IMG/VR virus record: IMGVR_UViG_3300032086_001957
DNA from: an uncultured virus (IMG/VR IMGVR_UViG_3300032086_001957)
Lineage: Duplodnaviria > Heunggongvirae > Uroviricota > Caudoviricetes
Length of the DNA stretch: 20,000 nt
Reading direction: 5' to 3' (one strand)
In this document: piece by piece, positions 18,631 through 18,845 of the stretch
Numbering within the stretch: the stretch's first letter is position 1
Layout: each line of letters starts with the position of its first letter
The notes under the pieces: generated by a model
Databases searched by the model: none
What the model saw: the letters and a program-made list of their open reading frames with translations, nothing else
Told to the model about the DNA's origin: nothing
Made by a program: the position numbers and the translations under genes

Positions 18631-18722
18631 GATTTTCTCACTTGATTTTAATGATTATCACTATGTGATTTTTTTATCTTTCTACTATATATTAGTGTTA
18701 ATAATTATTAAGGAGAAACATT

Positions 18723-18794
18723 ATGTGGAAGTCACCAGAATATACTGAAATGAGATTTGGTTTTGAAGTTACAATGTACATTGCAAACAAGTAA
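18723..18794 (+). CDS. pqqA: Pyrroloquinoline quinone (PQQ) precursor peptide
   Basis: Not in ORF track. [23 protein letters not shown] (23 aa) with the W-x-x-P leader and RFGF-E-V-T-M-Y core (ExxxY); SD AAGGAG at 18710-18715, 7 nt before the ATG; terminator downstream. Confidence 0.96.
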   Translation: [23 protein letters not shown]

Positions 18795-18816
18795 ATTTTA
18801 TTTCAAATAGAAAAAG

Positions 18817-18845
18817 AAAAGGGAGTTTTTAGACTCCCTTTTTTT
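18817..18845. terminator. Bidirectional intrinsic terminator between pqqA and the convergent minus-strand operon
   Basis: AAAAGGGAGT-TTTTAG-ACTCCCTTTTTTT: GC stem flanked by A and T tracts. Confidence 0.85.

Follow-up and report, generated by a model that had tools for sequence, protein, structure and literature searches.

A gene for PqqA, the precursor peptide of the cofactor pyrroloquinoline quinone (PQQ), has been described in viruses before. In the accessible text of Coutinho et al. 2020 (Microbiome 8:163; PMC7678222), PqqA and a methanol dehydrogenase are reported for the Lake Baikal viral population VP_266, which has a predicted Methylophilaceae host, and are given a role in PQQ-dependent methanol oxidation. 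A survey from 2026 (PMC13188868), in the part available, assigns viral pqqA, pqqD and pqqE to phosphate solubilisation, and the available sections of PMC9851590 attribute the cross-linking of Glu to Tyr in PqqA to PqqE. Here we analysed a 20,000-nucleotide (nt) stretch of DNA from an uncultured virus of the Caudoviricetes (IMG/VR record IMGVR_UViG_3300032086_001957), hereafter the window. A preliminary description, made from the sequence alone, had picked out a short stand-alone pqqA gene near the end of the window and left its novelty to a check of the literature. That novelty is not upheld, since a viral PqqA with the same interpretation appeared in 2020 according to the available text of PMC7678222. 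We found that viral stand-alone pqqA is widespread and that the window holds a further example, not the first of its kind, and we consider it likely that the phage gene is an auxiliary gene supplying sacrificial precursor to the PqqB-E proteins of the host.

The gene lies at positions 18723-18794 on the + strand, 72 nt including the stop, and its translation of 23 codons plus stop gives a peptide within the usual PqqA length of about 20-30 amino acids (aa). Both curated models of the family recognised the peptide, with 38.5 bits for PF08042 (cut-off 21.1) and 44 bits for the equivalog model TIGR02107 (cut-off 20). The corresponding hidden Markov model E-values, 1e-9 to 1e-11, are far past chance even when all short open reading frames (ORFs) in 20 kb are counted. 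The peptide contains the cross-link motif E15-V-T-M-Y19, and this E-x-x-x-Y arrangement is invariant in 7/7 aligned phage copies and in all 71 distinct viral sequences that we compared. The W-x-x-P leader is the part of PqqA that is recognised by PqqD; it is represented by W2 and P5 in the window peptide and is likewise invariant in the phage alignment and the 71 viral sequences. In the seven aligned phage copies, all of which pass TIGR02107, Trp2, Pro5 and the entire E9-Y19 core are unchanged. No second pqqA-like peptide is encoded in the window. Judged by these family models and motifs, the peptide is a genuine PqqA, as the preliminary description had proposed, and the beta/gammaproteobacterial character that it had ascribed to the core was borne out when bacterial peptides were compared.

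To place this gene among known phages, we used the peptide as a tblastn query against 50,697 phage records and obtained matches in 12. Nine of these are records of cultured Methylophilales/Methylophilaceae phages, namely Melnitz (4 records), Venkman, MEP301, MEP401, MEP402 and P19250A; the remaining three are one spring-water podovirus (Manatee Spring phage) and two bacterial-looking contigs deposited as 'Acinetobacter phage'. The two 'Acinetobacter phage MD-2021a' matches, with ppk and pqqBCDE in a bacterial-looking context, were dropped as phage evidence. One of them (L007, CAKLQF020000010.1) is 144 kb long, has the complete pqqABCDE operon, ppk and a gene for a 5'-nucleotidase around the matching site, and looks like a bacterial chromosome, or at least like no case of a stand-alone viral pqqA. 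Each phage match is a complete ORF of 23-24 aa with a ribosome-binding site (RBS), and most of the cultured-phage copies are unannotated. In two records a small 'hypothetical protein' is annotated over pqqA on the opposite strand (2961-3056 in Melnitz, MZ577097.1; 2067-2195 in the spring-water virus, MW202481.1), and both calls are probably mis-calls that hide the gene. A search of PHROGs with the peptide gave 0 matches, so that no family is available there. In IMG/VR, which we searched with two peptide patterns, at least 587 of the 600 pattern-matched stretches listed encode a PqqA relative. We examined the best 80 of these loci; one intact pqqA ORF was present in 80/80, and 11 have further proteins in common with the window. 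The position of the gene differs among related phages: it adjoins the gene for the gp5 hub in Melnitz and in three IMG/VR loci (L039, L040 and L059), and lies 17 kb from gp5 in the window.

We then compared codons across 87 copies (the window, 6 GenBank loci and the 80 IMG/VR loci), which comprise 71 distinct DNA sequences, and summed differences over pairs. Within the E9-Y19 core we counted 9,218 synonymous and 271 nonsynonymous differences; over the whole peptide the numbers were 15,430 and 10,163, respectively. The protein, not the DNA, is thus under strong purifying selection. Of the 71 viral sequences, 61 end in Lys, and all bacterial peptides compared, which come mostly from high-GC (guanine-cytosine) loci, end in Arg. 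This difference tracks base composition, because in low-GC streamlined Methylophilaceae the last residue is mostly Lys.

The remaining genes of PQQ synthesis do not accompany the window copy. Pfam scans of 42 ORFs in the window gave no pqqB-E, and tblastn of PqqB-E against the window returned chance matches only (best E = 0.33), in agreement with the earlier view of a stand-alone cassette. The missing linkage to pqqBCDE in the window is not disqualifying, as unlinked copies are usual in the host family. Likewise, a match to PqqB, C, D or E was found in 0 of the best 80 IMG/VR loci within their 936-20,069 nt each. As a positive control, the same test found pqqB-E at 53/69 bacterial loci, while 16/69 were without pqqB-E nearby.

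The DNA around the gene is that of a phage. Pfam identified genes for a PAAR protein, a gp5 hub with an OB domain and a DNA polymerase of family B. The polymerase shares 68.9% identity with its counterpart in Methylophilales phage Melnitz and about 53% with the polymerases of cyanophages. A megablast of the whole window against phage records gave no match, hence there is no near-identical deposited relative. Pfam scans of the ORFs showed no integrase in the window, and transfer RNA (tRNA) and Rfam scans of the window gave no match. We conclude that the window derives from a marine, lytic, T4-like myophage related to Melnitz, and that it represents a new Melnitz-like lineage with a distinct PqqA variant and a pqqA position unlike that in Melnitz. 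Since the preliminary description had named a chimeric contig as a way in which its reading could fail, we asked whether both junctions of pqqA recur in other assemblies. At least 92% of the sampled words of 17400-19400 were present in 17 DNA runs from 6 studies; the metagenomes are of seawater, marine, biofilm and sediment origin, and the source sample may be among them. Contigs from runs X2, X6 and X10, belonging to three studies, span 17400 to 18763-18784 with 0-2 differences. Other contigs span 18734/18755 to 18874/18996, among them X10 record 3 (18734-18996), which runs from pqqA through the hairpin behind it and reaches the gene beyond. Independent contigs therefore bridge both junctions and link pqqA to viral DNA on both sides, which excludes a chimera at this locus. 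The assemblies tend to break within the pqqA core, where depth jumps and loose ends carry other pqqA variants; a short repeat common to many organisms would be expected to have this effect, a chimera would not.

In the window, pqqA is a lone + strand gene that stands antisense to both of its neighbours, as had been noted from the ORF map. Upstream lies orf77 (18397-18630, - strand; 77 aa), to which no function is assigned and which is without a Pfam, NCBIfam or PHROG match; downstream lies orf100 (18903-19205, - strand; 100 aa), also with no function assigned, a homologue of which (69% identity) is found about 1 kb from pqqA in the viral locus L036. The diverging orf77 and pqqA genes are separated by an intergenic region of 92 nt (18631-18722), within which the pqqA promoter is presumed to lie. 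The strong Shine-Dalgarno sequence of the preliminary description is indeed present: the RBS AAGGAG occupies 18710-18715 on the + strand with a spacing of 7 nt to the ATG, and most of the 80 viral copies likewise have a GGAG-type site ahead of the ORF. Approximately 20 nt past the pqqA stop, a hairpin at about 18815-18844 was detected by terminator scan, folding and pattern match. It has a stem of 12-14 bp with an A-run before and a T-run after it, folds with -19.0 kcal/mol (a value without shuffle control), and is the sole terminator-like site in 18300-19300, where 0.2 were expected from shuffles; it was scored on the - strand. The cassette had been credited with its own terminator. The hairpin and its T-run are there, but because the structure is symmetrical, with both an A-run and a T-run, and gene 18903-19205 converges on it, we read it best as a two-way intrinsic terminator that pqqA on the + strand has in common with the converging orf100/PstS unit on the - strand, and not as private to pqqA. 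By crude ORF calling, both neighbours run against pqqA in 26 of the 87 viral copies and in the same direction as pqqA in 31; a strict terminator pattern is present in 32/87.

Next, we considered which bacteria might serve as host. All 151 genomes sampled from the family to which a Methylovorus genome belongs contain pqqA, at 1-12 matches each; together with the 3-12 copies reported for Methylophilaceae, where the other pqq genes are single-copy (PMC4109929, available text), this supports the earlier statement that several methylotrophs carry extra copies. Five family members with genomes of 1.1-1.3 Mb have three copies each, of a 23-aa type beginning MWT[TK], and pqqB or pqqC lies within about 1.5 kb at 0/15 of their loci. 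The pqqC and pqqE genes of these members are located at other sites; in genome G027, for example, the three pqqA copies are at 102, 841 and 871 kb, with pqqC at 710 kb. Such stand-alone host copies are dispersed single-gene cassettes composed of an RBS, the ORF, some 20-25 nt and a hairpin, whose spacing from the stop equals that in the window. At many Burkholderiales loci (within L088-L156), the operon copy is accompanied by a second pqqA, often with a ...YVFNR tail, which lies about 5 kb away on the other strand; this looks like a conserved two-copy arrangement.

The streamlined-Methylophilaceae type is identical to the copies of P19250A and Manatee Spring phage and close to those of other isolates. 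Because the Melnitz copy differs from this type, the peptide variant is a weak guide to the host. The window variant is nearest (87%, 3/23 positions differ) to a bacterial type found in betaproteobacterial metagenome-assembled genomes (MAGs) of 1.6-1.9 Mb with a GC content of 42-47% (one MAG is of marine origin) and in numerous Burkholderiales of high GC; identity to the OM43/LD28 Methylophilaceae type is 74%. Among relatives of these small-genome MAGs, pqqA is present in 15/21. All five candidate hosts carry pqqC and pqqE, and 4/5 carry a methanol/ethanol-family PQQ dehydrogenase over the cut-off, with two in G002. Other window proteins were not decisive between G002-G004 and G027/G063: identity was 45-47% versus 43% for the ErpA-like protein, 49-50% versus 46% and 39% for PurN, and 36-38% versus 41-43% for cytochrome c. 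PstS had no close match in the five candidate-host genomes. We conclude that the host is a betaproteobacterium that uses PQQ; the kinship of the phage points to OM43, the peptide variant to the MAG group. Because the variant is closer to that of the small-genome betaproteobacterial MAGs, a Methylophilaceae host, and with it XoxF as the beneficiary named earlier, is no more than a candidate.

The phage cassette has the design of the host stand-alone cassette. Its simplest reading is as one more copy of the sole component that is consumed in PQQ synthesis. In this process, for which we infer expression, processing and a benefit to the phage, phage PqqA would be translated during infection and handed to host PqqD/PqqE, which would cross-link Glu15 to Tyr19. 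A host protease, PqqB and PqqC would then finish the conversion, using up one peptide per PQQ. PQQ supply, the activity of the periplasmic PQQ-dependent alcohol (methanol) dehydrogenase and the energy yield could in this way be kept up while host transcription fails. In line with a supply role, the accessible part of PMC9851590 reports that two pqqA copies in a producer strain reached their highest expression at the time of the steepest rise in the rate of PQQ synthesis; it also cites a report in which purified PqqA was converted to PQQ in cell-free extract. Several observations weigh against precursor supply. No sigma-70-like promoter was recognised on the + strand upstream of pqqA in the promoter scan, and promoter-like sites in 18631-18722 occur only on the - strand (for example 18711-18684). 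Many of the 80 viral loci are short, so the absence of pqqB-E there is limited to the available DNA. In the RNA run X18, an aquatic metatranscriptome, a 62-nt contig of the pqqA core (18734-18795) reached a depth of 1,233, and its loose ends carry a different RBS and terminator, which makes it the pqqA of another organism. A relative of the window phage is present in the same run at a depth of about 8 and could be carried-over DNA; contig depth, moreover, cannot measure expression. Three RNA-labelled runs, X18 among them, contained small shares of the sampled words (0.16, 0.05 and 0.04), and X18 gives no evidence either way on expression of the window copy. PQQ is recycled, so that a need for fresh synthesis within one infection cycle is not obvious, and OM43 media are sometimes given PQQ, according to the available text of PMC9004378. 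Finally, the host evidence is split between OM43 and the small-genome betaproteobacterial MAGs.

An alternative that keeps the precursor supply but changes the beneficiary would have the resulting PQQ serve an enzyme other than methanol dehydrogenase, for example a glucose or other sugar/alcohol dehydrogenase tied to phosphate acquisition, in a non-methylotrophic or facultative betaproteobacterium. The PstS gene lies about 400 nt from pqqA, viral pqqA/D/E are placed under phosphate solubilisation in the available part of the 2026 survey (PMC13188868), and the MAG group nearest to the window variant is one in which pqqA is not universal (15/21). Those MAGs, on the other hand, carry methanol/ethanol-family PQQ dehydrogenases (two over the cut-off in G002), the nearest cultured phage, Melnitz, infects the methylotroph OM43, and acid solubilisation of mineral phosphate seems implausible for seawater plankton, which together leave this alternative improbable. 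We regard it as less probable still, and in fact very unlikely, that the peptide is a decoy or inhibitor that ties up host PqqD/PqqE and stops PQQ synthesis, or that it goes to another product. Apart from the differences at positions 3, 4 and 23 from the closest bacterial type, nothing speaks for such a role; in a decoy, Glu15 or Tyr19 should have been lost, whereas the cross-link residues and the E9-Y19 core are invariant in 7/7 phage copies and the same in host copies, and the peptides of P19250A and Manatee Spring phage are fully identical to streamlined Methylophilaceae copies.

The breaks in the assemblies raise the question of whether the element acts as DNA or RNA, as a recombination homology patch, the remnant of an attachment site or a regulatory RNA. 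A core of 60-70 nt is common to many genomes in the same samples, assemblies break exactly there, and pqqA occupies differing places in related phages, either adjoining gp5 or 17 kb away. Yet third codon positions vary while the amino acids are fixed (9,218 versus 271 differences), pointing to selection on the protein, there is no Rfam match in the window, and a complete ORF with an RBS is present in 80/80 loci, so that a nucleic-acid role has about as small a chance as a decoy. The attachment-site version was rejected for a lytic T4-like phage with a full ORF and RBS and with no integrase seen. Least credible of all is the idea that the phage lately took up a piece of host DNA that has no function, or that the gene arose in assembly. 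Its isolation on the + strand among - strand genes might suggest this, but the same junctions occur in independent assemblies from three studies, the GC content of pqqA (0.32) matches that of the phage and not the 42-47% of the closest bacterial loci, the DNA outside the ORF is without similarity to host copies, and the gene is intact in very different phage types; both the selection and the junction data contradict this explanation. The decoy, nucleic-acid and pick-up explanations thus appear to fit the conservation pattern poorly, and precursor supply to the host PqqB-E proteins remains the reading that we favour.

The window also carries accessory genes typical of marine phages, encoding PurN, an ErpA/IscA-like protein, a cytochrome c, four 2-oxoglutarate (2OG)-Fe(II) oxygenases and PstS. 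PurN (4259-4846), the ErpA/IscA-like Fe-S carrier (13989-14360) and PstS (19206-20000, cut by the window end) are all encoded on the - strand; PurN scored 155.5 bits for TIGR00639 (cut-off 150.1) and PstS, whose gene is the one about 400 nt from pqqA, scored 278 bits for TIGR00975. The genes at 2176-2778, 3004-3606, 8512-9042, 17457-18143 and 12172-12819 (all - strand), four 2OG-Fe(II) oxygenases plus one cupin-fold gene, are unusually dense for 20 kb. In the RNA-library run X18, a contig of 1,048 nt resembles the window at about 97% but is without 688 nt (17460-18149), a gap that coincides almost exactly with the 2OG-Fe(II) oxygenase gene 17457-18143; it thus represents a close relative of the window phage without this gene. 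The cytochrome c, of c551/c552 type (16108-16482, - strand), has an N-terminal hydrophobic stretch, a best PDB match of E = 4e-20, membership in phrog_36206 with function unassigned, and homologues of 36-43% identity in 5/5 candidate-host genomes. It could carry electrons from periplasmic dehydrogenases, and nothing ties it specifically to PQQ enzymes. Besides pqqA, one more convincing gene on the + strand interrupts the - strand array, at 15118-15735; it encodes 205 aa with a C-terminal hydrophobic segment and belongs to phrog_32327, function unassigned.

Being too short for routine gene callers and without a PHROGs family, pqqA is missing or mis-called in most deposited methylophage genomes, despite being common in viromes. 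It is one of the rare cases in which a phage carries a ribosomally made cofactor precursor and not an enzyme, it links viral infection to the oxidation of methanol and other one-carbon compounds at sea, and its role is testable in existing cultures of OM43 with Melnitz, Venkman or MEP phages. More tentatively, and with the odds against it, we suggest that pqqA might be a near-universal hallmark of phages of PQQ-dependent betaproteobacteria, acquired repeatedly by unrelated lineages (T4-like myoviruses, siphoviruses and Zobellviridae podoviruses) as the precursor peptide, and not the enzymes, would fail first after host shut-off. If this were true, pqqA would be a sequence marker for predicting PQQ-dependent hosts in viromes. 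PQQ might, moreover, be overproduced in infected cells and released at lysis as a shared vitamin for the many bacteria that take it up but are unable to make it.

Among known systems, several features of the window gene recur in the copies of cultured methylophages. Melnitz, Venkman, MEP301, MEP401/402 and P19250A all encode a stand-alone PqqA of 23-24 aa with an RBS that passes TIGR02107, the cultured methylophage peptides being 64-78% identical to that of the window, and in Venkman and MEP301, as in the window, pqqA is antisense to both annotated neighbours. The surroundings differ: the Melnitz gene adjoins tRNA-Leu and the gp5 hub, whereas the window gene stands between PstS/orf100 and a 2OG-oxygenase block. 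The Melnitz, MEP301, MEP401 and Venkman papers do not mention pqqA in their main texts, and our literature search, which had supplements and the P19250A paper outside its scope, found no paper stating that the cultured methylophages all carry it. The orphan pqqA genes of Methylophilaceae and other Burkholderiales belong to the same family and have the same single-gene design unlinked to pqqBCDE; they differ in being chromosomal and not viral, with higher GC, unrelated flanks and a closest peptide that deviates at 3 of 23 positions. In cyanophages, psbA (D1) is a case in which the phage carries only the fast-turnover part of a host energy system, and its role in infection is experimentally supported. 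By analogy, phage PqqA may be the consumed component supplied by the phage while the host provides the rest, though the protein and pathway are unrelated and, unlike for psbA, we know of no experimental support for a function of phage pqqA in infection. VP_266, as far as the available text describes it, shares with the window a viral pqqA precursor gene and the same auxiliary-gene interpretation; compared by description and not by sequence, it differs in coming from fresh water, in being known from a metagenome only and in encoding a methanol dehydrogenase; no dehydrogenase was seen in the 20 kb marine window. The window pqqA is therefore an instance of a known phenomenon, the idea of which has been in print since 2020, and its value lies in the breadth and testability that it adds.
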